Of a DNA stretch of 64,000 nucleotides, positions 43,926-56,723 are shown in pieces; positions within the stretch are counted from its first letter, which is position 1, and each line of letters opens with the position of its first letter. Source of the stretch: Roseibacillus sp. (GTDB taxonomy: Bacteria; Verrucomicrobiota; Verrucomicrobiia; Verrucomicrobiales; Akkermansiaceae); contig CBDEUM010000012.1 in assembly GCA_965242925.1 (NCBI GenBank), positions 1 through 64,000 of the forward strand. Reading direction: 5' to 3'. The notes below the pieces were generated by a model that worked only from the letters and a program-made list of their open reading frames with translations, was not told where the DNA came from and ran no database searches. A program made the position numbers and the translations under genes.

Positions 43926-46665
43926 GTGCAGCACCCCCTCCCCGGTCAGCGATGGACCAGTGCATCCCAGCCGGAACTCGGCCTGGGCCTCGTCATCACC
44001 ACGGAGGGTGACCGGGTCGAGATTTGCTTCCCCGCTGCTGAAGAAATGCGTCAGTATGTCTTCTCCTCTGCTCCCCTGATCCGCGTCCACTTCAAGGAGG
44101 GTGACCGGATCAAGGACCAGGCGGGCAAAGCGTTCACCGTTGAACGGGTTGAGGACCGGGATGGGCTTTACGTATACCACGCCGGGGAACACGAGATTCC
44201 GGAGGAGCATCTCTTCGACGCCTTGAGTTTCTTCAAGCCGGAAGAGCGCCTCCTCGCCGGTCAATGCGACGACCTCCCTTCCTTTGACCTCCGGGCCCAG
44301 GCCCTGCAGCATAATGGTCGCATTCGCAGCTCTCCCGCCCGGGGCTTCACGGGTGCTCGCATCGATCTCATTCCACACCAGGTCGCCATCGCCTCGGAAG
44401 CCGCCCGGCGACTCTCTCCCCGGCTTCTCCTCGCCGACGAAGTCGGACTGGGAAAGACCATTGAAGCCTGCCTCATCCTTCACCGCCTGCATCTTACCGG
44501 ACGTGCTGACCGGGTCCTCATTCTTGTTCCAGAGCCACTTGTCCATCAATGGTTCGTGGAATTGCTGCGCCGTTTCAATTTCCTCTTTGCCCTCTTCGAC
44601 GAAGACCGTTGCGCTTCCCTTGAGGCCAACGATGAGACCGGAAATCCATTCCTGGACAGCCAGCTCATCCTCTGCGCCACCGAATTTCTTGCCGAACAGC
44701 CGTCCCGGGCCGAACAGGCCAGAGCCGCGGGATTCGATCTCCTTATCGTGGATGAGGCCCACCACCTCGAATGGCATCCCAACGCGCCCAGTCCGGCCTA
44801 TTCTCTGGTTGAATCGCTTGCTGCGATCGTGGATTGCCTCCTTCTCCTCACTGCCACGCCGGAACAACTCGGACCGGAGGGCCACTTCGCGCGACTTCGC
44901 CTTCTTGACCCCAGCCGCTACGACAACCTCTCCACTTTCCGGGAGGAGGCGGAAGGTTACGAACCACTTGCCGACCTGGTGGGGAGGCTGGCCGACGGGG
45001 AATGCCCGACTGAAGAGGATCTCGCTCTCATCGCGGGGCGTTCGCCACGCACGGAAACCTCGGTCCGGGCTTTAGCGGAACACGATGAATCTGCACGAGC
45101 GGAGCTGATTCAAGATCTCATCGATTCCTTTGGCACCGGAAGGGTCATGTTCCGCAACACCCGGGATCGCCTCACCGGCTTCCCGGAGCGCAAACTGCAC
45201 CTTGTCACCCTTGATGCCGTTCAGGATGGGGACGGGATCGAGGCGCGCGTGGACTGGCTGTCGGAGTTCCTCCACGACTTCCCAGACCGCAAGGTCGTCG
45301 TCATCTGTCATTCCATGGAATTGGCCGAGTCGATTCGCTCTCTCCTCCTCGCTCGCATTCAGATTGAAGCCGCCCTCTTTCATGAGGAGCTTACCCTTCT
45401 TCAGCGTGACCGCAATGCCGCCTGGTTCGCAGAACCGGGTGGCGCCCGTGTCCTGATTTGCTCCGAAATTGGGTCCGAGGGTCGCAATTTTCAATTCGCC
45501 CACCACCTCGTCCTCTTCGATCTCCCGGCCAATCCGGAACTTCTCGAGCAGCGCATTGGAAGGCTTGATCGCATCGGACAGACGGAAACGATCAATATCC
45601 ACGTCCCGGTAATCAAGGGCAGCGGCGAGGAACTACTGGCGCGCTGGTATGCTGAGGGGCTTGACGCCTTTGAGCACTCCCTGAAGGGCGCGGCCACCCT
45701 GTCAGGAGCCCTCGGACCGGAACTCAGAACCCTCCAGCAAAATGGGGAGACGACTCACTTCGCGGAGTTTCTGGAACGCACCAGGACCATGCGGGATAAA
45801 GTGGCACGTGAACTTGCCAGCGGTCACGATCGCCTCCTTGAACTGGGCGCCCCTTCCACGGAGAAAACGAAAGAACTTATCGAGCAGATTTCGATTACCG
45901 ATCACGATCCCGCTTTCGAACAATTTGTCATTCGACTCTTCGACCACCTCGGACTGAGCATCGAGGACCTCTCCCTGCGGAGTTATGTTTTTCAGAGAGG
46001 TGAACGCCTCAGCGAGGCCTTTGGAGAGTTTCCCGAGGATGGACTCTCCGCCACCTTCGATCGAGACTGTGCCCTCACCCGGGAAGACATCGCCTTCATG
46101 ACCCCGGACCATCCGCTCTTCCGGGATGCCGTCGACTCCCTCCTCGGCCAGGAGCAGGGCAACTGCAGCTTTGCCCACTGGAAGACGGCACGGGGAAAGA
46201 CGATGCTCCTGGAGTGCTACTACGTCCTGGAGTGCCCTGCCCCCACCCGGTTGCACGCCGACCGCTTTCTCCCGCCCACCCCCTACCGCACAGTGGTTGA
46301 TCACAAGGGAAATGATCACAGCGAGGACGAGGGCTTGCCGACCGCCAACCTGGAACCAGGCAGTCCCCGCAAGCTCGGTCTCCCAGAAGGTATTCAGGAC
46401 GGACATCCTTCCTTCCATGCTCGCCCGGGCGGAGGAGATCGCAAGCGAACGGGCCCAGGCACAAGTTGAACAGGCGGTAAGCGCCGCTGAAAAATCACTG
46501 GCCGGCGAGATCGAGCGCCTCCGCGATCTGGCCCGACGAAACAACCACATCTCTCCCGCCGAGATCGAATCCCTCGTCGAACATCGCGACGAAATTAGTC
46601 GCCTTCTCGGCCAGTCGCGGGTGCGACTGGATGCCCTCCGCCTCATCTGGCGGACCCCGGGCTAG
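43926..46665 (+). CDS. rapA: RNA polymerase-associated SNF2 ATPase RapA (frameshift ~46375)
   Basis: GQRW.S..PELGLG, LLADEVGLGKT, DEAHH, GSEGRNFQF, EQRIGRLDRIGQ, RLDALRLI. Confidence 0.95.
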
Positions 46666-46744
46666 AAGCAATGTCCGGTGCAGGACACGCCGGGAACCAG
46701 AGGTTTACCTTTTCCGGACCGCCGCGACCCCGTAGCCTTCGCGC

Positions 46745-47158
46745 ATGAAACTTCTCATGCCCCTGATTCTCGTCTCTGTTCTCGGGGCCCTCCCGGCCAA
46801 TGCGGATCCTGGCAGAAATGCGACCGGGGCAATCGTCCATGTCAACGCCGTGAAAGCCGCTCAACTTCTTTCCAACAAGGACGAGAAGAAGCGTCCCGTC
46901 ATCATCGATATCCGGACTTTGGACGAGTTCAGGGAGACACACCTGAAAGGGGCCAGGCAGATCGATTTCCTTGAAGACGACTTTGCTGCCAGAATCAGGA
47001 AACTGGATCGCACCCGGGCCTATCTCATTCACTGCCGCAGTGGTGGCCGCAGCTCCCGCTCGCTTACCCTCTGGAATGAACTCGGATTCAAGAAGATCTA
47101 TCACCTCGATGGCGGCATCCTGGCCTGGCAAAAAGCCAGCCAACCCGTGGTCAAGTAG
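46745..47158 (+). CDS. Rhodanese-like domain protein (exported)
   Basis: IDIRT..EF...HLKGA, HCRSGGRS, LDGGILAW. Confidence 0.9.
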   Translation: MKLLMPLILVSVLGALPANADPGRNATGAIVHVNAVKAAQLLSNKDEKKRPVIIDIRTLDEFRETHLKGARQIDFLEDDFAARIRKLDRTRAYLIHCRSGGRSSRSLTLWNELGFKKIYHLDGGILAWQKASQPVVK

Positions 47159-47173
47159 CCGCTCCGAAAAGCA

Positions 47174-47536
47174 ATGCTGAAAACTCCGATTGGAAGACTG
47201 CGGCTTACAGGACTGCTGGAAGGGAGCTCTTACCTCGTCCTTCTCTATTGCTCGATTGTGCTCAAGCGGATCCAAGGCAACGCGGAGGCCATCCACCTCC
47301 CGGGCGCTATTCACGGCGGACTCTTCATCCTCCTCTGCCTCCTGCTCTGCCTCGCCCGCAAACCAGCGGGATGGTCACACAGGACCTGCGCCGTAATCTT
47401 CGGCGCAGCCCTTCTCCCATTTGGACCGTTCGTAATTGAACCCTGGCTCAGAAGGGAAGACCAGCGGGTAAGGAACCAACGACAGGCAAACGCCGCAGGC
47501 ATCCGCGCCGATGCATCCGGCCCCCTGGACCCTTAA
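47174..47536 (+). CDS. DUF3817 membrane protein
   Basis: LEGSSYLVLL, GAIHGGLF, ALLPFGPF. Confidence 0.8.
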   Translation: MLKTPIGRLRLTGLLEGSSYLVLLYCSIVLKRIQGNAEAIHLPGAIHGGLFILLCLLLCLARKPAGWSHRTCAVIFGAALLPFGPFVIEPWLRREDQRVRNQRQANAAGIRADASGPLDP

Positions 47537-47868
47537 CGGGCACAGTCTCCACAAAGGGTGGCCTCGGGCCGCTGCTCGAGACGGGCATAGGCGATCCACT
47601 GGCCGCACCCTTCGCAAAGCCCGTAAGCTCCCTCGTCCATCCTGCGAAGGGCCTCCTGCAATTCGTGAATACGCTGGTTACGACGGCGACTGGCATCCTT
47701 GCGCACCTCCTCCATCTGCATCGAGTCCAGCCTCGAGAGGCGACCGATCGCAACGTCCACCGCCACCGCCTGGGGGTCCACCTCCTCCGAGGTGGCCTCT
47801 TTCCTCAATTGCCCCAGTTCCCCCCGGGCGCGGATTTCCAACTCGATCTGTTCCTCCACGCTGAGCAC
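47533..47868 (-). CDS. TraR/DksA C4-type zinc finger protein
   Basis: IGRLSRLDSMQ, ALRRM..G.YG.CEGC...I...RL...P...LCGDC; GTG start inferred. Confidence 0.88.
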   Translation of the reverse strand: MLSVEEQIELEIRARGELGQLRKEATSEEVDPQAVAVDVAIGRLSRLDSMQMEEVRKDASRRRNQRIHELQEALRRMDEGAYGLCEGCGQWIAYARLEQRPEATLCGDCAR

Positions 47869-47986
47869 CCCAGCAGCATGCCGTCCCCTCCCCCTCGAGG
47901 CAAGATTGGGCACAGGAATCGCTCGCCAGCACGTTCCCCGTTGAGATTCTGATATCATGAAGCCCTCCCTCCTGTTCGCCAGCGCC
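47746..47986. repeat. Direct repeat B, copy 1 (traR/dksA 5' part, bidirectional promoter, truncated C25 start MKPSLLFASA)
   Basis: Colinear with 56791-57031, roughly 80% identical by eye. Confidence 0.9.
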
Positions 47987-48042
47987 CGGTTTCAGGAGCC
48001 AATCGCTTCACGCATCGTGCGATCGCGGATCGTGCCCAAGGA

Positions 48043-48076
48043 AAAACGCCGCAGTCCGCGAGGACTCCGGCGTTTT
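48043..48076 (-). terminator. Rho-independent terminator, potentially bidirectional
   Basis: AAAACGCCG-c-AGTCC-gcga-GGACT-c-CGGCGTTTT just downstream of the PEP-CTERM gene. Confidence 0.7.
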
Positions 48077-48096
48077 GAAATGAGTAATCCAGTCTC

Positions 48097-48846
48097 CTAG
48101 CCGCGGTTCCGGCGACGCAGGAAGGACAAGGTCAACACGGATCCGAGGAGGGCGAGAAGCGGGGCGCTCGGCTCGGGAATTGGGTTTGAGACGGCATTGA
48201 GCGCCACGTAGTCATGTCCCATCCAATTACCACCGCCGCTGGCGTTGTAATTGATCCCGCGCAATTCGACATAGTTATCGAACCCGGATCCAATCTCGCC
48301 ATTGACGCTCGCAAGGGTGAATTGCGGGGTGGTGATGACGGTGCTGAGGTTCCCGGGGTTGACCTCAACTTCCTCCCCCACGAGGACATTGTTGAAATAG
48401 ACCTCCACGCCGTAACGCTCGGTTCCACCCTGCCCATGCAGGTTGTTCGCCTCGAAGGAAACCGAGAACAGGTCGGTCGGATCGACGGTTGTCAGGTTGA
48501 AGTGAAAGCGGGAGTGATTGTCGGCGCCTGCAAAGGCCCGTTCAGCGCCAAGCTCATTGGTGGCAACGACCCCTACCGGAGTATAGGTGCCTCCGTCGAC
48601 CACGGTGTTGTAAACGCCTGCAAAGTAATAGTCGTCATCGCTCTGTCGGGCTACCAGCGAACTGTCGGGAGCTCCGGGAAGATCATTCACTGCTGTTTCC
48701 TGGACCCAGTTGACGTCAGGTCCACCACCAACCTGACCTTGAGGCCAAGCCCGTCCGGGGGCACCTGCTTGCCAGACAATGGCAGCTTGAGAAACCATTC
48801 CACTAAGCGCAAAAATGGTGATTAAGGGCATATGGGTTTTTGCCAT
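48097..48846 (-). CDS. PEP-CTERM protein
   Basis: Signal peptide; C-terminal IPEPSAPLLALLGSVLTLSFLRRRNRG. Confidence 0.88.
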   Translation of the reverse strand: MAKTHMPLITIFALSGMVSQAAIVWQAGAPGRAWPQGQVGGGPDVNWVQETAVNDLPGAPDSSLVARQSDDDYYFAGVYNTVVDGGTYTPVGVVATNELGAERAFAGADNHSRFHFNLTTVDPTDLFSVSFEANNLHGQGGTERYGVEVYFNNVLVGEEVEVNPGNLSTVITTPQFTLASVNGEIGSGFDNYVELRGINYNASGGGNWMGHDYVALNAVSNPIPEPSAPLLALLGSVLTLSFLRRRNRG

Positions 48847-49197
48847 GCCTGAAAACTGCCCACTCCCATGGCATGATGCAAACATTCTCATCGCTTATGT
48901 TCGCAAAACTGAGCTCCCACGGTCACATCGTTCTTGATATTCAGCCAATCCTGATTTCGCATGAACCCGCCCAATATCTCCTGGCCCCTTGTTTCCATGT
49001 GAATTTCTTGGACACGCGGCTCCGGCGAGTCCCCAAATAATGTCGCTCACCGCCCTTGATAAATTGGTTCCGCAAACACCCGCACCGGATCAGGCTCACT
49101 CTGGCGAGAGCGGGATATTCCGGGCAGCCCTGCCTCATCACACCCGGGAACTGCGAGTTGCACATCGTGCGCGCCCTGTTACCAACCTAAACGGCCG

Positions 49198-52100
49198 ATG
49201 ACCCTGTCCAAGTCCACCCGAGAACCCCTCGCCCGGGGGAAGCCCAACCCCTCGCCCAATCCTGGCCCTGATTGTTCTGACACTGGCGATGCCGGGCTGT
49301 AAACCGACGCAACGCCCCAACCAGGATTCCATTGTGGGCAACGATGCCGCTCAAATTCGCGAGCTGGTAAGCGTGGAGGAACGGATCCTCGCCCTCACCC
49401 CACAACTCCGCGAGCTCTCGAAAAGCATGCAGAACCTGCGCCTCCCGGACGGCCCCCGGCTGATCCACTTTGCGTCCGAGGTGACCGTGCGGGAAGCAGG
49501 GCAGACTGCGGACACCTCCGCCCCCGGGGATCTCGACCTGCTGCGCCCCCTCCTCAAGGAGGTGGCCTGGATCGAGCAGGCTTCCTTTTACTTCATCGAT
49601 GGGAGGTTTCCGGACGAGGAGGAGGATCTCTTCGAGGGTGAAGTGGGATTCCGTGGACTGGCCAAATTGAAATCCGGCGGATGGCAGGGACTGATCGGCA
49701 AGTTTCTCATCAAGTGGACCAGGGGCACAGGCGAGGAGGGTGCGGAATGGAAGATCAGCGGCTGGGAACAAAAGGAACTAGTGACCATGGCGAGTGCGCG
49801 GCGTCTCTTTGGCGATGCGCTGGGCACCGCCTTGCCCCGCCCGGCCGACCGGGCCCTCGCACATCGCTCTCCCCACCAGGAGGCCGCCATCAAGTTCTAC
49901 CAGGGGGCGCGAAGAAACATCCGCATCCCTACTTCGCTCCGATCTCCGTCAATCAGAAGCCCGGTCTCGCGGTGGTGGACATCGATTCAGATGGCGACGA
50001 TGACATCTATGTCACGGTCCGGATCGGGCGCAACCTGCTCTTCGAGAACCAGGGCGACGGCACTTTCGTGGAAGCGGCGGAGAAGTATGGGATCCACTTC
50101 ACCGGGCACTTCACCTGTGCGCTCTTCGCGGACTTCGACAACGACGGCGATCCGGACCTCTTCGTGGGCCGTAGCTTGAAACCCAGCCTCTACTTCGAGA
50201 ACCGGGCGGGCCACTTTTATCCCGGCCCGCAGCAGAAAGAGTTCCCGATGACGGCGGTCTCGGCTTCCGCGGCAGACTACAATGGCGACGGCTTGCTCGA
50301 TTTGTACCTGCTGACCTACCGTCCGTCGACAATCGGCGGCAACTCAAGTCCCTCGGGCGGCTCGGGCGGGGTCGGAGCACAAACCGAACACTGGCCTGAT
50401 CACTTTTTTCCGCCCGGGATGGCCGCGGAGTATTACCGCCGTCACAGGGAAGCAAACTCGCGAAACGATCCCCAGTTCCCGAACCTCCTCAACCAGATCG
50501 GACCGCCGAACATTCTCTATGTGAACCGCGGCAAGGGGCGCTTTGAAATTGCGGAGGAGAGCACCCAGTTGGGGATCTGGAGAAACTCCCTGCAGGCCAC
50601 CTGGGCGGATTATGACGAGGATGGCGACCCGGATGTCTTCATCGCCAACGACTGGGCGCCCGACAACCTCTTCCGCAACGACGGAGAGTCCGGCTTCACC
50701 GACGTCACGAAGGAGGCCGGCCTCACCGAATTCGGGTTCGCGATGGGGGCTACCTGGGGCGACTACGACAACGATGGCCTGCAGGACCTCTACGTCTCCA
50801 ACATGTTCAGCAAGGCGGGTGCCCGCATCACGAACCGCGTCCCGGGAATCGCCGAGATCTACAAGCAGTCCGCGGCCGGTAATTATCTCTACCGTCAGCG
50901 GCCCAATCACACCTTCGAGCTTGTCTCGGGAGACAAGCCCCCTGCCCTCGCGGTCACCAAGGCAGGCTGGTCGTGGGGTGGCCAGTTCGCCGATTTTGAC
51001 AACGATGGCTTTCTCGATCTCTACGTGCTGAGCGGATACTTCACCGCGCCCGAGGCCGTCTCATCGGAGCTGGACTTGTGAAGTAACCTCTGGCGCACGG
51101 TCGTGCGCACCGACAGCAACCTCGCCCGGCGCAGCTTCCGCTTTTCCGAGGAATGGAGGCGCCGCACCGGGGATGCCCCGCTCACCCCGCAGATTGACCG
51201 ACGCCTGCAGGGAGGCCGGGAGGAAGACGGCCGCTATGTCGTCCATTCCCTGAGCGGAATGGAGCGCAACCACTTCTTCATGAACCGGGACGGAAAAAAA
51301 TTCTCCGATCTCTCGCTGATTTCCGGGATCGACAATCCGGCGGACAGCCGCGGATTCGTCCTGCTCGATTACGATCACGACGGCTGGCAGGACCTCGCCC
51401 TGGTGAACGCCAACGAACCGCTCTTCAACATCTACCGGAATCAGACGGGCGAGGCTGAAGGAAAGGCGGACCACCATGTCATTGCGATTCGCTTCGAGGG
51501 CGGAGCCCGAGGAGAGGCCAGCCCCAACGAGAACTACGCTTGCCGCGACGGATATGGCGCCTTGGTCACCGCCGACCTGGGTGACCTGACGATCAAGCGC
51601 GAACATCGCTGCGGAGAGGGCTTCAGCGTGCAGAACAGCCGCACCATGGTGATTGGGATCGGCTCACGCGAAATGGTTCCCTCCCTCACGGTTCGGTGGC
51701 CATCAGGCAAGACAACCACCCGGGAGAACGTGGCAGCCGGCACCCTTCTCATCGCCTACGAAAATCCCACCCACTCGGGCGCCAGCACGCAGTTCACGCT
51801 GAGCAACTACCACGATGTTGTGCCGCGGAAGCAGGCCCCCGTCCCTCTCACCAGCTTTCCGATCACGGAGCCCGACGCCACCGCACCCATTCGGGTCTAC
51901 ACCACGATGGCCACCTGGTGTGTGGCATGTCAGTCGCATCTCCCGCAGCTCCAGGCCCTGAAGAACGGACTGGGTGAAGGGGCCGCTCTCATCGGCATTC
52001 CGATCGACCCGGACGATAACGCCAAGATGCTCACCGAGTACGCCGAGGAGTGGAAGCCTGCCTATCGCATCCGCGCCGACCTGGAATCCGACGCGCGCGC

Positions 52101-52248
52101 CGCAGTGACAAGGTTTCTTGCCGAGCAATCCGGCGAAGAGGCCGCCCTGCCCTCCACCATCATCACGAACGCCGAAGGCAAAGTCCTCAAGGTGATGTCC
52201 GGCGTGCCGGATGTCTCCATGGTTCGCAAACTCGCGGCCGGTCCTTGA
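49198..52248 (+). CDS. FG-GAP/CRTAC1-family lipoprotein with ASPIC/UnbV and thioredoxin-like domains; in-frame TGA 51079-51081 (candidate selenocysteine); frameshifts ~49240 and ~49905
   Basis: Lipobox-like ILALIVLTLAMPGC; seven D.D.DG..D repeats; ORFs 49681-51081 and 51103-52248 share a frame with no other stop; SLSGMERN, VRWPSG, ATWCVAC. Confidence 0.8.
51093..51108 (+). promoter_or_regulatory. Candidate bacterial SECIS element
   Basis: GCGCAC-GGTC-GTGCGC perfect 6-bp stem with GGUC loop, starting 11 nt after the TGA. Confidence 0.7.
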
Positions 52249-52253
52249 GCAGA

Positions 52254-55200
52254 TCAACGGGCCTGGACGCGTAAGCGGGAGAAGAAGCGCTCTCCGAGGC
52301 TTCCCGCAGGATTCAGTCGCACCGTCATGAGCACCCGGCCATCTCCGAGATTGACCACGCTGACTACCACCGCCTCCGCTCCGGCAGCCTGCCAGGATTG
52401 CAGGTCGTTGGAGTAGTCGATCTCGATGGTCGCCCCGTCCGCGGCGATACTGACAGGATAGATCAGGGTCGGCAGGGAGAGCATCTGTCCCTCGATATCG
52501 TAGTCCTGCATGGTGAAGGTCGCCTGAAGAGGACCTGCGCCGAGACCATTTCCAAACGCGTAGTCGAGAAGATCCGTAATCCCATTGCCATCCGCATCGC
52601 CCAACGGGTTTACGGGCAGCGGAAGGGCGTCCGTGTCATTCGGATTGCCATCCGGGAGCAGGCTCGCGCGCCAACTCGCAGGGTCATCCGGATCCGGGCT
52701 GGTCTCGGGCGCGATGAGGACGATGCTGTTTCCAAGCCCGTCCGCTTCCTCGGGCCACGGGGCGAGGTCGTTGTAGCGGAACTCCGCGATCGTGCCGTTG
52801 AGAGCGTCCTCCAGTTTCACAGTGTCGCCGCCGTTGTTGAGAGCACTCATATTCGCAAACACGCCGGCCACCGGCAGACCGATGCCGTGCACGCCTTCAA
52901 AGGCGGCGAGATTGCGGACCACGAGAACCCTCGCGCCAGGAGGCAGGCTGGTCACCGCACTGCCGGAGAAGTCGAACTGGATTCCTCCCGTGAAGCGAAC
53001 ATTGGTGAGATCGAGGGTAATCGAATCGCTGATGTTGATGAGTTCAATGAACTCGGTCAGCTCGCTTCCGAGTGGATGATACATGATCTCGGTGATCCGG
53101 AGGTAGAGCTGCGCGTCCGAGGGATTGCCCACGTAGGTAGTCGCACTGATCTCGTTGCCGGCCGAATCCGAAAGGGTGACGGTCTCGCCGAAGCTGGAAA
53201 GGTGCCCCTCGTATGCGCCCTGCACGAAGAGGCCCTCGCCGCCCTTGGGACTCTGAGTGCGGGCGCGGAAGGCGGTGACATCGGGGCTGACGTAAAGCGA
53301 ACTGCCCGCCGGGATGACGGTCCCGCCCTGGAAGGTAAACTCGATCCCGCCATCCAGCTTCCAATCCGAGATGTCGACCGCGATGTCGTTCGGATTGGTC
53401 AACTCGATGTACTCCTCGTCCTGGTTTCCCGAGGGAGGCGCAAACTCGAGCGCTCCGAAGTTGATGATCGGTTCGCCGGGAGGGCCCACTAACTGGGTCC
53501 CGCCGTAAAGTTCGGGCCTGATGATCATGTCGCTGCTCCCGGTGCCTTGGTTGAGACCATGAATAGCGAGGATATTCTGCCCGGCCTTCAGGGCTCCGAG
53601 GTGCTGCGTAATGTTGTAGATGTCGAAGCTCCCGGCATTGGCCTCGTGGCTGGCGTTGAGGGCCGCCGAGTTCCAGGTCACCGCCCCCGGTGCGTTCTCG
53701 GACTGGACCACCGTGCCATTGATGAAGGCCACGAACCCGTCGTCCCACTGCATGCGCAATTCGAGGCTGTCGAAGGCACTGGGATCCGCCACGTTGAAGG
53801 GGATGCGGATGTAGATGCTGTTGTTGCTCCTCATCTGCGTGTTGACGTCGGTGCCGATCAGGGATTGGTAACCACTGGTGCGCTCGTAGCCGATTCCGGT
53901 GGTCCCTGCGATCCAACCGGAGGTGTCGAAGGGCTCGAAGGCCGCGAGTCCGATCCAGGTAAGTCCCAGGCTGTTGTCGGAGGGGACAAAAGCATGCGAA
54001 GGCGCGGGGGCCTCTATCAGGGGAGTAAGCTGGAACGAGGCCGCACCGGTCTGCGGCAGGGGAATCTCCCCACCGTTGCCGACCGTCTGGTTGTTGTATA
54101 TCTCGTTGCGCCGCGCCGGAAGGTACTCGTTCTTCCAGCGCAGGACGGCCTCCGCCATCGACTCCACCGCGGGATTGGTATTCGTGTGGGAAACCGGCGA
54201 ACCGCTGCCCTGGAGCCACGATCCCCACTTGACAAAATCGCGCTGGGCATCCGAGGGGACGATCGAGGGCGGATCGATGAGGGCCGATTGCTCATCCAGT
54301 CGCCGCTCGTACCAGCGTTCGGCGAGAGGGGTGCCCGGCTCCTGGAGATAGCGGTCTGAGAGCGTCCGCATCCTGCGCAGGATCATGGATCGCAGCGCGG
54401 AATTGCCGAACATGTGGGAGACCAATCGGATCGAGCTTCCAGTCACCACGAGACCATGGGAGTATAGATTGTTGTCGAAATAGGTGTTTTGGGAGTTCCA
54501 GACGCGACCGCCGGAGAGGTCGAGGTCCCAGGGCAGGAGCGCCCACTCGTTGGTCTTCCCGGTGTCGCGATAGATATACCAGTTCTTCGAGTGCATATCG
54601 ATGTTCCGGATCACGGAGTTGGCGGCCAGCAGGTTGACGCACTTCGGAATGTCGATGTTGTCGTAGAGATAGTTGATGCGCGCGGTTCCACTCAGGGTGA
54701 GATTGTCGATGAGGGCCTGCAGGTCGGAGTTGTTCTCGAACTTGCGGTTCTTTTTCTCGAAGCCGCTGTTGGCGGAGCCGGTCAACCTGTTGCTGTAGGC
54801 CTTGTAGAGGGCACCATCCCTGTTGAGCCCGGCCCGCTCGAGGTAGATGTCGTCCCCGTCCTCCACAAAATCCGCGACGCTGAAGAAGGCCCCGTTCTGC
54901 TCGACGCGGACGGTGAAGGAGAAGTGGGCGGGGACACCCGACTCGCGCATGATCTCATAGGCAATCGGGTGGCGGACCTTGGACTTGTCCGCCCAGTTGG
55001 TGAGCAGATCGATATCGGCCACGCGCGGGATATCGGGATCGAGGCTCCACTGGAATCGCTGGGTCTTGTTGAAGTCGATGTTATAGCTCTTCTTGACGAA
55101 GCCACCGGTCGATTGACCGTGACGACTGAAGTGCACGTTGTCGTAGAACTGACCGAGGTAGTAGAGCGCGCCGATGGTCCCGTTCGTATTGTTGGCCGAG

Positions 55201-56723
55201 TTCGGACTCGCCACAAACCACTCCAGCACCGAAAGGTTGGTCTGGATCGCCGGGTCGTGACCGACAGTGCCGAAGTACTGGTGTGAATCGCCCGCATCGC
55301 GAAAAGCGGGCTCGCGCGTCTCGTTGCCCACCGCATCAAATGCAGAAAAGCGCCAACGCGTCATTTCACCGGGGACGATCTGGTTGGCCGGGATCACCGC
55401 GGTGTATATGTCATCGCCTGCCACCGCGTCCGCTCCGGTCCCGTTATCGAACATGAAGACCGAGGCTTCGCCGCTGAACATGCGGCGATAGTAGAGCCGG
55501 ACCGAGGTGATCGGACTGACCGAGCCGATCACTTTGGCCGTCACGGTCAAGGCGCCACTCACGGGCTGGGGCGGGTTCTCGGTCACCTCCCTGAAGATCG
55601 GCCCCGACTGCTGTCCGCCGGTATTCGGGGCGCCGGGGGTCGGGTTGTCGAAGTAAACCCATGCCGCCGAGGCCCCCGGGTCCGCGGTGGTCGAGACCGT
55701 CAGGGAGATCTCCGGTTTGCTCCCGGGATCAATGTCCCAATCCATGAACATGGGATTGGCGTCATTGAGAATCATCAACTGACCCCGCTGGGGAGCGCCG
55801 GGATTGTCGACCCAATCCTGCACCAGCGCAGCGATGTCCCAGGTTGCCACCGGGGTCTGTCCCGGCGCAGCGGTGAAGGCCGCCGCCGGTGCGTTTGCCG
55901 CGTAGTAATCCACCAGGTCGCTTCCCGAGTAGGCTGCTGCGATGCTGTCAACTCCGTGATTGGCGTCGGGAACTGCGAAGACTCCGAGATTTGCGGAGAC
56001 CGCGGGTGAGCCAAAGACAGAGTTCGCCACCGCCCCACCCCAGGACAAGGTCGCAGAGTCCACCACACTTCCACCTGGGATCGTGCTGAGGTTGCTGGAA
56101 AAATCGAACCACATGTAAAGCTGCGTTCCCACTGCCCCGCTCCCAAGATCGAAGCTGTCCGCATTCGACGTCTCGCTCGCCGACTGAGTTCCGGTCAGCG
56201 CGACATTCGCGTAGTTTCCCGGCGAGCTCCAAAACGGGGTGAGGTCGAGATTCGAGGACGAACCCGGCACGCCGAACCCGAATGACTGGTCATCGAATTG
56301 CGGTGGATAGACCGGGCCAAACGCGCTCACGATGGTCGTTCCGTCGGGGGCCACCAGGCCGAGGAACTCGCCGCCGGAGCTCAGCCGGAAACTGGTATGG
56401 AGTTGCGAGGCTGGATCGACACGGTCCTTGTTGGAGGCAAAGACCACAAGATACTGGTCCGCGTTCAGGGTGATGGCAGGGAAGGTCCACTTGGTAAGAT
56501 TGGCGGCGTTGTCGGTCAGATGATACCCGTCAAGTTGCACTGGAGCGGGGCCTGGATTATGAATCTCGATCCAGTCCGAAAAGTCACCATCCTCATCCTG
56601 GTAGGAGGTGTCGTTCACCGACATGAATTCGGAAATCAGGGGAGCGGCGCTCAGCAGGGACGCGAAACAGAGCAAGGCCAGGATGCCCGCATGTCGCAGG
56701 CGCAAATTACTTTGGATGATCAC
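52254..56723 (-). CDS. Secreted lamin-tail-domain / CotH kinase protein
   Basis: ISEFM..N...DEDGDFSDWIEI LTD; KKSY.I.F, D..SKNWYIY, PWDLDLS CotH motifs; further LTDs; C-terminal SNDLQSW...FFSRLRV. Confidence 0.85.
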   Translation of the reverse strand: MIIQSNLRLRHAGILALLCFASLLSAAPLISEFMSVNDTSYQDEDGDFSDWIEIHNPGPAPVQLDGYHLTDNAANLTKWTFPAITLNADQYLVVFASNKDRVDPASQLHTSFRLSSGGEFLGLVAPDGTTIVSAFGPVYPPQFDDQSFGFGVPGSSSNLDLTPFWSSPGNYANVALTGTQSASETSNADSFDLGSGAVGTQLYMWFDFSSNLSTIPGGSVVDSATLSWGGAVANSVFGSPAVSANLGVFAVPDANHGVDSIAAAYSGSDLVDYYAANAPAAAFTAAPGQTPVATWDIAALVQDWVDNPGAPQRGQLMILNDANPMFMDWDIDPGSKPEISLTVSTTADPGASAAWVYFDNPTPGAPNTGGQQSGPIFREVTENPPQPVSGALTVTAKVIGSVSPITSVRLYYRRMFSGEASVFMFDNGTGADAVAGDDIYTAVIPANQIVPGEMTRWRFSAFDAVGNETREPAFRDAGDSHQYFGTVGHDPAIQTNLSVLEWFVASPNSANNTNGTIGALYYLGQFYDNVHFSRHGQSTGGFVKKSYNIDFNKTQRFQWSLDPDIPRVADIDLLTNWADKSKVRHPIAYEIMRESGVPAHFSFTVRVEQNGAFFSVADFVEDGDDIYLERAGLNRDGALYKAYSNRLTGSANSGFEKKNRKFENNSDLQALIDNLTLSGTARINYLYDNIDIPKCVNLLAANSVIRNIDMHSKNWYIYRDTGKTNEWALLPWDLDLSGGRVWNSQNTYFDNNLYSHGLVVTGSSIRLVSHMFGNSALRSMILRRMRTLSDRYLQEPGTPLAERWYERRLDEQSALIDPPSIVPSDAQRDFVKWGSWLQGSGSPVSHTNTNPAVESMAEAVLRWKNEYLPARRNEIYNNQTVGNGGEIPLPQTGAASFQLTPLIEAPAPSHAFVPSDNSLGLTWIGLAAFEPFDTSGWIAGTTGIGYERTSGYQSLIGTDVNTQMRSNNSIYIRIPFNVADPSAFDSLELRMQWDDGFVAFINGTVVQSENAPGAVTWNSAALNASHEANAGSFDIYNITQHLGALKAGQNILAIHGLNQGTGSSDMIIRPELYGGTQLVGPPGEPIINFGALEFAPPSGNQDEEYIELTNPNDIAVDISDWKLDGGIEFTFQGGTVIPAGSSLYVSPDVTAFRARTQSPKGGEGLFVQGAYEGHLSSFGETVTLSDSAGNEISATTYVGNPSDAQLYLRITEIMYHPLGSELTEFIELINISDSITLDLTNVRFTGGIQFDFSGSAVTSLPPGARVLVVRNLAAFEGVHGIGLPVAGVFANMSALNNGGDTVKLEDALNGTIAEFRYNDLAPWPEEADGLGNSIVLIAPETSPDPDDPASWRASLLPDGNPNDTDALPLPVNPLGDADGNGITDLLDYAFGNGLGAGPLQATFTMQDYDIEGQMLSLPTLIYPVSIAADGATIEIDYSNDLQSWQAAGAEAVVVSVVNLGDGRVLMTVRLNPAGSLGERFFSRLRVQAR

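Follow-up and report, generated by a model that had tools for sequence, protein, structure and literature searches.

The DNA analysed here (the window) is a 64,000-nucleotide (nt) stretch from the metagenome-assembled genome (MAG) of a marine Roseibacillus-like bacterium, with a genome completeness of 89.9%. Its positions 49198-52248 on the plus strand hold a gene for a large FG-GAP propeller protein, whose coding sequence is crossed by a TGA codon that very probably specifies selenocysteine (Sec). The FG-GAP open reading frame (ORF), 49681-51078, ends with the residues SSELDL and is followed by TGA at 51079-51081; beyond this codon the same frame reads SNLWRTVVRTD... and stays free of stops until the TGA at 52246-52248. 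An earlier note on this DNA had read both halves as one selenoprotein, pointing out that the frame stays open, that the last D.D.DG repeat (DYDHDG) lies 3′ of the TGA and that 11 nt separate the codon from the sequence GCGCAC-GGTC-GTGCGC. All three features are present as it described them, the 11 nt occupying 51082-51092 and the hairpin sequence 51093-51108.

All features of the gene lie on the plus strand. The start, as read in related environmental contigs, is the ATG at 49198-49200. It is followed at 49262-49300 by a hydrophobic signal segment with the lipobox-like end ...LAMPGC (LALIVLTLAMPGC), read directly from the DNA in the frame of ORF 49289-50179; this reading follows the lipobox rule, and Cys is found at the aligned lipobox column in 9 of 11 paralogs from the same genome. 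The FG-GAP β-propeller part spans 49915-51078 (Pfam FG-GAP_3, 149.5 bits; FG-GAP, 72.1 bits). Downstream of the TGA, 51082-51549 encodes a conserved segment that starts with SNLWRTVVRTD and includes the last FG-GAP blade with its DYDHDG motif, in agreement with Pfam, which places one more FG-GAP repeat 3′ of the TGA. Next come a UnbV/ASPIC domain at 51550-51747 (PF07593, 51.8 bits, residues 157-222 of the downstream part) and, at 51901-52212, a thioredoxin-fold domain of AhpC/TSA or TlpA-like type, whose CxxC motif, WCVAC, is thus also encoded 3′ of the TGA (Cys codons 51919-51921 and 51928-51930). This last assignment combines the CxxC motif with family-model matches that are marginal by score: AhpC-TSA reaches 26.7 bits against a Pfam cut-off of 26, Redoxin stays under its cut-off (20.5 against 26.6 bits), and the sole match in an NCBIfam scan, TlpA at 22 bits, is far below the cut-off of 230.

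The terminal TGA at 52246-52248 is supported as the true stop by the ortholog from a sister genome (locus L020), which terminates at the same place. That ortholog is a single open frame whose sole internal stop is the TGA at the Sec column, and the uninterrupted homologs are single proteins of 1000-1100 residues. These observations bear out the earlier note's description of an exported, redoxin-bearing protein of ~1000 residues that is annotated as two genes.

The FG-GAP repeats and the UnbV_ASPIC domain that follows them are both matched above the Pfam cut-offs, as is characteristic of CRTAC1-like proteins. The window protein shares the order of calcium-type FG-GAP propeller and UnbV/ASPIC domain with CRTAC1 (cartilage acidic protein 1; PDB code 9etn) and the bacterial ‘CRTAC1 family’, whereas CRTAC1 has no Sec, no thioredoxin domain and no counterpart of the ~150-residue, Sec-holding segment between blades. 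A model of 777 residues, calculated with AlphaFold2 from a 63-row alignment (mean predicted local distance difference test score (pLDDT) 76.3), had murine CRTAC1 as its best Foldseek match (9etn_A, E 1e-23, template modelling score 0.65 by target) and otherwise matched generic propellers only; a sequence search of the PDB likewise matched CRTAC1 and nothing else (E 1.5e-11). The C-terminal W-C-x-x-C domain, with its matches to the AhpC-TSA, Redoxin and TlpA models, resembles the extracytoplasmic thioredoxin-fold reductases of TlpA/AhpC type, from which it differs by being fused to a large propeller instead of free-standing and by its marginal scores.

The TGA column was followed across homologs with a 307-residue query that spans the junction. 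The query matched 27 of the 41 related genomes searched, and among the matches listed nearly all had exactly one internal TGA. The MAG itself contains 13 loci with 30-99% identity and a TGA exactly at the query column; most of their products are lipoproteins 1160-1365 residues long, and the TGA comes 610-700 codons after the start. In the relatives, TGA was found in 71/71 fetched regions covering the column, and in named genomes and MAGs of several phyla it was found in 80/80 loci, which include Verrucomicrobiales, Planctomycetota (Mariniblastus, Pirellulaceae), Acidobacteriota, Latescibacterota, Longimicrobiales, Myxococcota, Halioglobus and Binatia. Overall, 160/160 loci have TGA with the reading frame kept on both sides, to which 32 further loci from metagenome contigs can be added. 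The complete 48-base stretch at the column is available for 191 loci from Verrucomicrobiota, Planctomycetota, Myxococcota, Gemmatimonadota, Pseudomonadota and others, and every one of them has TGA.

Comparative data, and not the window sequence alone, decide that the hairpin at 51093-51108 (stem GCGCAC/GTGCGC, loop GGTC) is beyond chance. Aligning 93 distinct sequences from the clade of the window gene gave 94.1% paired cells, a value reached by none of 500 shuffles; slid registers, used as a control, pair at 5.6-67%. Compensatory double changes occur at four of the six pairs, with 21 doubly changed cells against 2.9 expected. A second clade with a 5-nt loop, GGUCG (51 sequences), gave a similar picture (96.4% paired, 0/500 shuffles as high). 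Several of the compensations alter the encoded residues on both arms, as in WRTVVR, WSTVVL, WRVVTR, WREVSR and WRAVAR.

The loop is conserved at the level of single synonymous bases. The base before the loop Val codon (column 27), which can change without changing the protein, is G in 105/116 and 51/53 distinct Sec sequences. In a clade of uninterrupted homologs with GAA or GAG at the TGA column (the Glu clade) the same column is C in 11, A in 3, T in 2 and G in 4 of 20 sequences, and NATG stands in place of the loop GGTC. Synonymous loop bases are therefore near-fixed only alongside TGA. The spacing of the window hairpin agrees with the general rule of a 6-8 bp stem and a loop G ~20 nt after the UGA, as worded in the relevant passage of PMC4605307, and the stem-loop has both a loop G/GU at about this distance and covariation. 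An Rfam scan of 50950-51250 at E values up to 10 returned no family.

The window contains none of the sel genes, and the earlier note had suggested a search of the whole genome for selA, selB, selC and selD. Three of the four components are encoded outside the window: a tRNA-Sec (59 bits, anticodon TCA), a SelB (287.5 bits) with a β-barrel and two winged-helix domains (SelB-wing_2 and SelB-wing_3), and a SelD. The selD gene (C14:573853-574776) is a selenoprotein gene itself, reading SSCAG-TGA-ASKLG with the TGA at the active site. Its hairpin, CGCGCAGGUCCUGCGCG, begins 25 nt after the UGA and not 11, and carries the loop motif GCAGGUC, the same as in the propeller paralogs. The selD loop may thus serve as an independent hint at the target of the organism's SelB.

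With the TGA column, the stem covariation, the loop bases, the selD loop and the Sec machinery all pointing the same way, we are confident that the TGA at 51079-51081 is a Sec codon decoded by SelB and a hairpin, in a family of exported proteins found in several phyla, as the earlier note had proposed for this gene. The organism's SelB would bind the hairpin (6-bp stem, GGUC loop) 11 nt 3′ of the UGA and deliver Sec-tRNA(Sec) to the codon, leading to actual Sec insertion. The ribosome would then yield one exported protein of ~1000 residues which comprises, in order, a signal/lipoprotein N-terminus, an N-terminal domain, the FG-GAP propeller, the Sec segment, the last blade, the UnbV/ASPIC domain and the thioredoxin-fold CxxC domain. 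The decoding mechanism would be the known SelB/SECIS (Sec insertion sequence) one; the putative chemistry of the protein is taken up below.

The SECIS of E. coli fdhF combines an 11-nt spacer and a GGUC apical loop with a bulged U in the upper stem. The window gene is like an E. coli fdhF-type gene in having an in-frame UGA that is followed, after a spacer of 11 nt and still inside the ORF, by a hairpin with a GGUC-type loop, and in belonging to a genome that encodes a SelB with winged-helix domains. Unlike the fdhF-type element, its 6-bp stem has no bulged U, and the likeness to that class is thus incomplete. The two systems also differ in their products: an exported propeller here as opposed to a cytoplasmic or Tat-exported molybdoenzyme, with a Sec that would be no metal ligand of any known cofactor and counterpart residues that are mostly not Cys.

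Several observations weigh against a Sec codon with a chemical function, and each is set out here together with the alternative it favors. The first is that the window's copy is frame-broken as assembled. The frame of ATG 49198 holds two stops before 49681, and the signal segment and N-terminal domain sit in a different frame from that ATG; of the earlier note's single gene from 49198 to 52248, the part past the TGA is open as stated, but the part before 49681 is not. Two indels account for this. One is a stretch of about 10 extra bases at 49225-49235, within the leading copy of a 12-nt direct repeat, which puts the signal peptide out of frame with the ATG; the other is a 1-nt deletion at 49901-49902, which does the same to the FG-GAP part relative to the N-terminal domain. 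The copies of the repeat (AACCCCTCGCCC) lie at 49223-49234 and 49246-49257, 23 nt apart, and a 10-nt indel within the first copy is what slippage or an assembly error would be expected to produce.

Logan contigs from four runs of four studies (X1, X2, X3 and X16) were aligned to the gene. All four have an extra base at 49901/49902, A in X1 and X2 and G in X3 and X16, and two of the four omit 10 bases at 49225/49226 (X3, at a depth of 9.49 of 9.49, and X2, at 4.7 of 15.3). The sister-genome ortholog is likewise continuous across the site of the 1-nt deletion, where it reads YQGGAKKHPHPYF. Once both indels are corrected, the ATG at 49198 opens a frame of 1013 codons in which the TGA, as codon 625, is the sole internal stop. 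The TGA is spanned by DNA contigs of three runs from three studies, and among the differences listed none falls between 50903 and 52091. The RNA contigs of X16 cover parts of the gene only; such libraries can contain DNA, and these contigs are uninformative on decoding. The copy in the window is thus either mis-assembled or inactivated in this strain.

A second version of the region exists within the assembly. Contig C17:42364-53243 repeats window positions 44000-54517 with 98.5% identity over 4.3 kb and 82-97% upstream, and ends inside the region. The gene copy there has an additional A at ~49902, an insertion of its own of 47 nt at window position ~50232 and a different 5′ end, and it carries the long two-helix N-terminus seen in homologs. 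The repeat stems either from a mixture of strains in the MAG or from recent duplication.

The hairpin, too, is less striking when viewed on its own. A single-sequence fold of 71 nt has a z-score of +0.95, with 167 of 200 shuffles equally stable, and since the fold is no more stable than shuffles the window sequence alone proves nothing. The peptide R-T..V-R forces four of the six stem pairs, and 19 of 21 loci of the Glu clade retain five or six of the six pairs; for these two reasons the stem alone is weak evidence. Together with the two indels, the unremarkable fold energy and the peptide-set, Glu-clade-retained stem favor the explanation that the TGA is an ordinary nonsense lesion in a pseudogene and the hairpin a by-product of the peptide WRTVVR. 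Against this, all 191 loci, from several phyla, have TGA at one and the same column and an intact frame to either side of it; the stem pairing is maintained by compensations that change amino acids, fixation of the synonymous loop bases is confined to sequences with TGA, and the ortholog is intact except for the TGA. We regard a nonsense lesion as very improbable. The stem of the Glu clade looks like the relic of a lost SECIS inside a peptide that is still conserved.

The Sec machinery is incomplete in this assembly: two models did not find selA in the 89.9%-complete genome, and to that extent the genome search suggested by the earlier note fell short. This gap would fit an explanation in which the UGA is read without Sec-tRNA, through near-cognate read-through or because the codon is reassigned, locally or generally, to Trp, Gly or Cys. 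UGA-to-Trp reassignment has a precedent in some Verrucomicrobiota, according to the passage of PMC13462651 that deals with it. It is contradicted here by the gene ends: TGA terminates the window gene, its ortholog and 7 of the 13 copies in the MAG, and with the window gene and most paralogs ending in this codon, TGA is still a stop in this genome. There is also exactly one internal TGA per gene, with the hairpin always after it, while tRNA-Sec, SelB and a Sec-containing SelD are present and selA is found above cut-off in 18 of the 19 other genomes of the genus. Decoding without Sec-tRNA therefore has, in our judgement, hardly any likelihood, and we retain Sec as the residue specified.

A further difficulty is posed by the residues that replace Sec in uninterrupted homologs, which are the only forms, those with sense codons at the Sec column, that the homolog databases hold. 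At this column, Glu is found in each of the 120 uninterrupted homologs nearest to the window gene (120/120), which makes for a weak Sec/Cys signature. In 120 homologs of a paralog from another subfamily, the column is N in 66, S in 19, A in 10, C in 7, G in 6, H in 5, D in 2, Y in 2, E in 2 and Q in 1. Cys, which the earlier note had named as the alternative to TGA in homologs, is therefore not the usual counterpart but does occur in some, and the seven Cys homologs of this subfamily include three of the five best matches. The variability of the column means that many lineages can do without the residue as far as the fold is concerned, and perhaps as regards function too.

A FastTree phylogeny of 128 subsampled rows (SH-like supports of 92-99, midpoint root) places these forms relative to each other. 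The Glu clade (support 99) is nested in Sec forms as sister to the window gene's group (92), and both lie within a 24-row clade (support 98) of which the remainder is all Sec; this nesting implies a single loss of Sec to Glu. Rows with C, D, Q, A, H, Y or G are interspersed among the Sec rows of the remaining half of the tree, which suggests that Sec was replaced repeatedly. The Glu clade as collected here (loci L185-L205, proteins P0001-P0120) has kept the ancestral stem, lost the GGTC loop and mostly lost the CxxC motif.

Loss of Sec goes along with loss of the CxxC motif. Among the 11 Sec paralogs of the MAG, the only widely kept Cys/Sec columns besides that of the lipobox Cys (9/11) are those of Sec (11/11) and of the two Cys of CxxC (9/11 and 8/11), and WCxxC is present in 6/6 Sec orthologs from relatives. 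In the Glu clade, only 8 of 120 proteins have CxxC and 91 have neither Cys. In the other subfamily, CxxC accompanies Cys at the column in 3/3 aligned proteins and Asn in 1/28. On the other side of the balance, CxxC is also seen in proteins whose column residue is S, H, Y or E, and the link between Sec and CxxC is correlative, its rows being kin.

The tolerance of almost any residue at the column in uninterrupted homologs would also suit a UGA that is mainly a programmed stop or selenium-dependent switch between a propeller-only lipoprotein and the full-length protein, with a Sec that has no chemical role. Recoding at the E. coli UGA-SECIS is reportedly no more than 30-40% efficient and depends on selenium (PMC4513850), and the TGA sits at a boundary that is followed by the last blade, the ASPIC domain and the redoxin part. 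Retention of CxxC with Sec, and its extensive loss after the change from Sec to Glu, point instead to chemistry, and the truncated product would miss a blade because the DYDHDG blade is encoded 3′ of the TGA. We consider such a switch unlikely, if somewhat less so than a nonsense lesion or a reassigned codon.

For a functional Sec, the pattern of Cys retention suggests a redox role coupled to the fused thioredoxin-fold domain. The Sec might act as an extracytoplasmic redox centre in concert with the CxxC domain of the same polypeptide, for instance through a selenenylsulfide relay. The predicted structure does not help here: pLDDT is below 50 at residues 376-391, 393-436 and 439-447, around the Sec, and this low confidence means that the model gives no geometric support for a contact between Sec and CxxC. 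A more far-reaching possibility, which we put forward tentatively and think more likely wrong than right, is that these proteins are extracytoplasmic selenium-dependent oxidoreductases of a new kind. In them, the CRTAC1-like calcium propeller would carry the Sec on a conserved and mobile segment, and the C-terminal thioredoxin-fold domain of the same protein would recycle it through its CxxC; the paralogs, of which marine Verrucomicrobiota have up to 16 in a genome, would presumably act on different substrates, and the lineages that replaced Sec (by Glu, Asn, Ser and others) would also have lost CxxC and kept a binding role only.

The family is multi-copy in the marine Roseibacillus-like genus and spread over several phyla. 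A DNA motif consisting of D-L-TGA-S-x-x-W and the start of the hairpin has 12 matches in the MAG and none when reversed as a control. Genomes of the genus have 0-16 matches, with 4-16 in 19 of 20 genomes and none for the controls. In a 300-genome sample of the phylum, the motif occurs in two other genomes, once each, and a Glu-type query found no Glu-type locus; with regard to the motif this sample tells us little because it is without any member of the window's genus. A covariance model (R1) recovered 12 of the 13 loci in the MAG; its extra match at C14:317344 (E 0.66) was rejected as a chance hit, as it is without an in-frame TGA.

Some of the copies in the MAG are closely related or differently organized. 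The Sec paralogs at C28:4493 and C37:896 are near-identical, and the C37 copy, which stops 53 codons past the TGA, is probably a truncated or broken twin. Given the twin pairs C12/C17 and C28/C37, the 13 loci may be 11 distinct genes. A second Sec paralog on the window's own contig (C12:89967), ~26 kb past the end of the window, encodes ~1400 residues with FG-GAP, UnbV_ASPIC and AhpC-TSA domains and TPR repeats. In six relatives (G008:C50, G002:C27, G003:C66, G006:C525, G009:C183 and G037:C57), two Sec paralog subtypes, one of SDLWRSVVR type and one of SCFWSTVVL type, adjoin each other within ~2-3 kb, often on opposite strands. The members of this conserved pair may work together.

Both immediate neighbors of the window gene are on the minus strand. 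The gene at 52254-56723 encodes a CotH-kinase-like protein of 1489 residues with three lamin-tail domains. The one at 48097-48891 encodes a 264-residue protein that has no Pfam match; its C-terminal PEP...hydrophobic...RRR tail resembles what we take to be a PEP-CTERM sorting signal.

The earlier note had supposed that the family is uncharacterized as a selenoprotein family, which is nearly but not entirely so. Kim et al. (2016, PLoS One, PMC4807772) list in Table S9 four ASPIC/UnbV FG-GAP selenoprotein candidates, each annotated as two genes, with Gly as the counterpart in the closest match and a SECIS predicted by bSECISearch in three of the four. The rows of this supplement come without analysis, and the main-text passages concerned do not discuss the four candidates (PMC4807772). 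Compared by description only, they are like the family described here in domain make-up and in their non-Cys counterpart, and our collection includes Planctomycetota loci that share the TGA and the hairpin. What goes beyond Kim et al. and is shown only here is the 191-locus column, the covariation, the range of 0-16 copies per genome within one genus, the loss of Sec to Glu and the CxxC link. In full-text literature, we found nothing relevant that links selenoproteins or selenocysteine to FG-GAP, ASPIC, UnbV or CRTAC1. A term search did not find the family mentioned in a 2022 review, a 2026 review, the deep-Sep paper or the text and one supplement of BSepDB, a set of sources that was possibly incomplete.

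A real and widespread family of exported selenoproteins that is barely documented is thus highly probable. Gene callers split its members in two, so that hundreds of large exported proteins of marine and soil bacteria are misannotated. The counterparts of Sec are Glu, Asn, Ser and others, an exception to the usual Sec/Cys rule, and the family would escape any search that relies on Cys homologs. With up to 16 copies per genome, it would represent a sizeable and overlooked selenium demand in marine Verrucomicrobiota and Planctomycetota. To our knowledge no biochemical function has been assigned to CRTAC1, and the presence of a Sec together with a fused CxxC domain would be the first functional handle on CRTAC1-like propellers. 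Should the oxidoreductase model prove true, the chemistry of the whole CRTAC1/ASPIC family would become testable.

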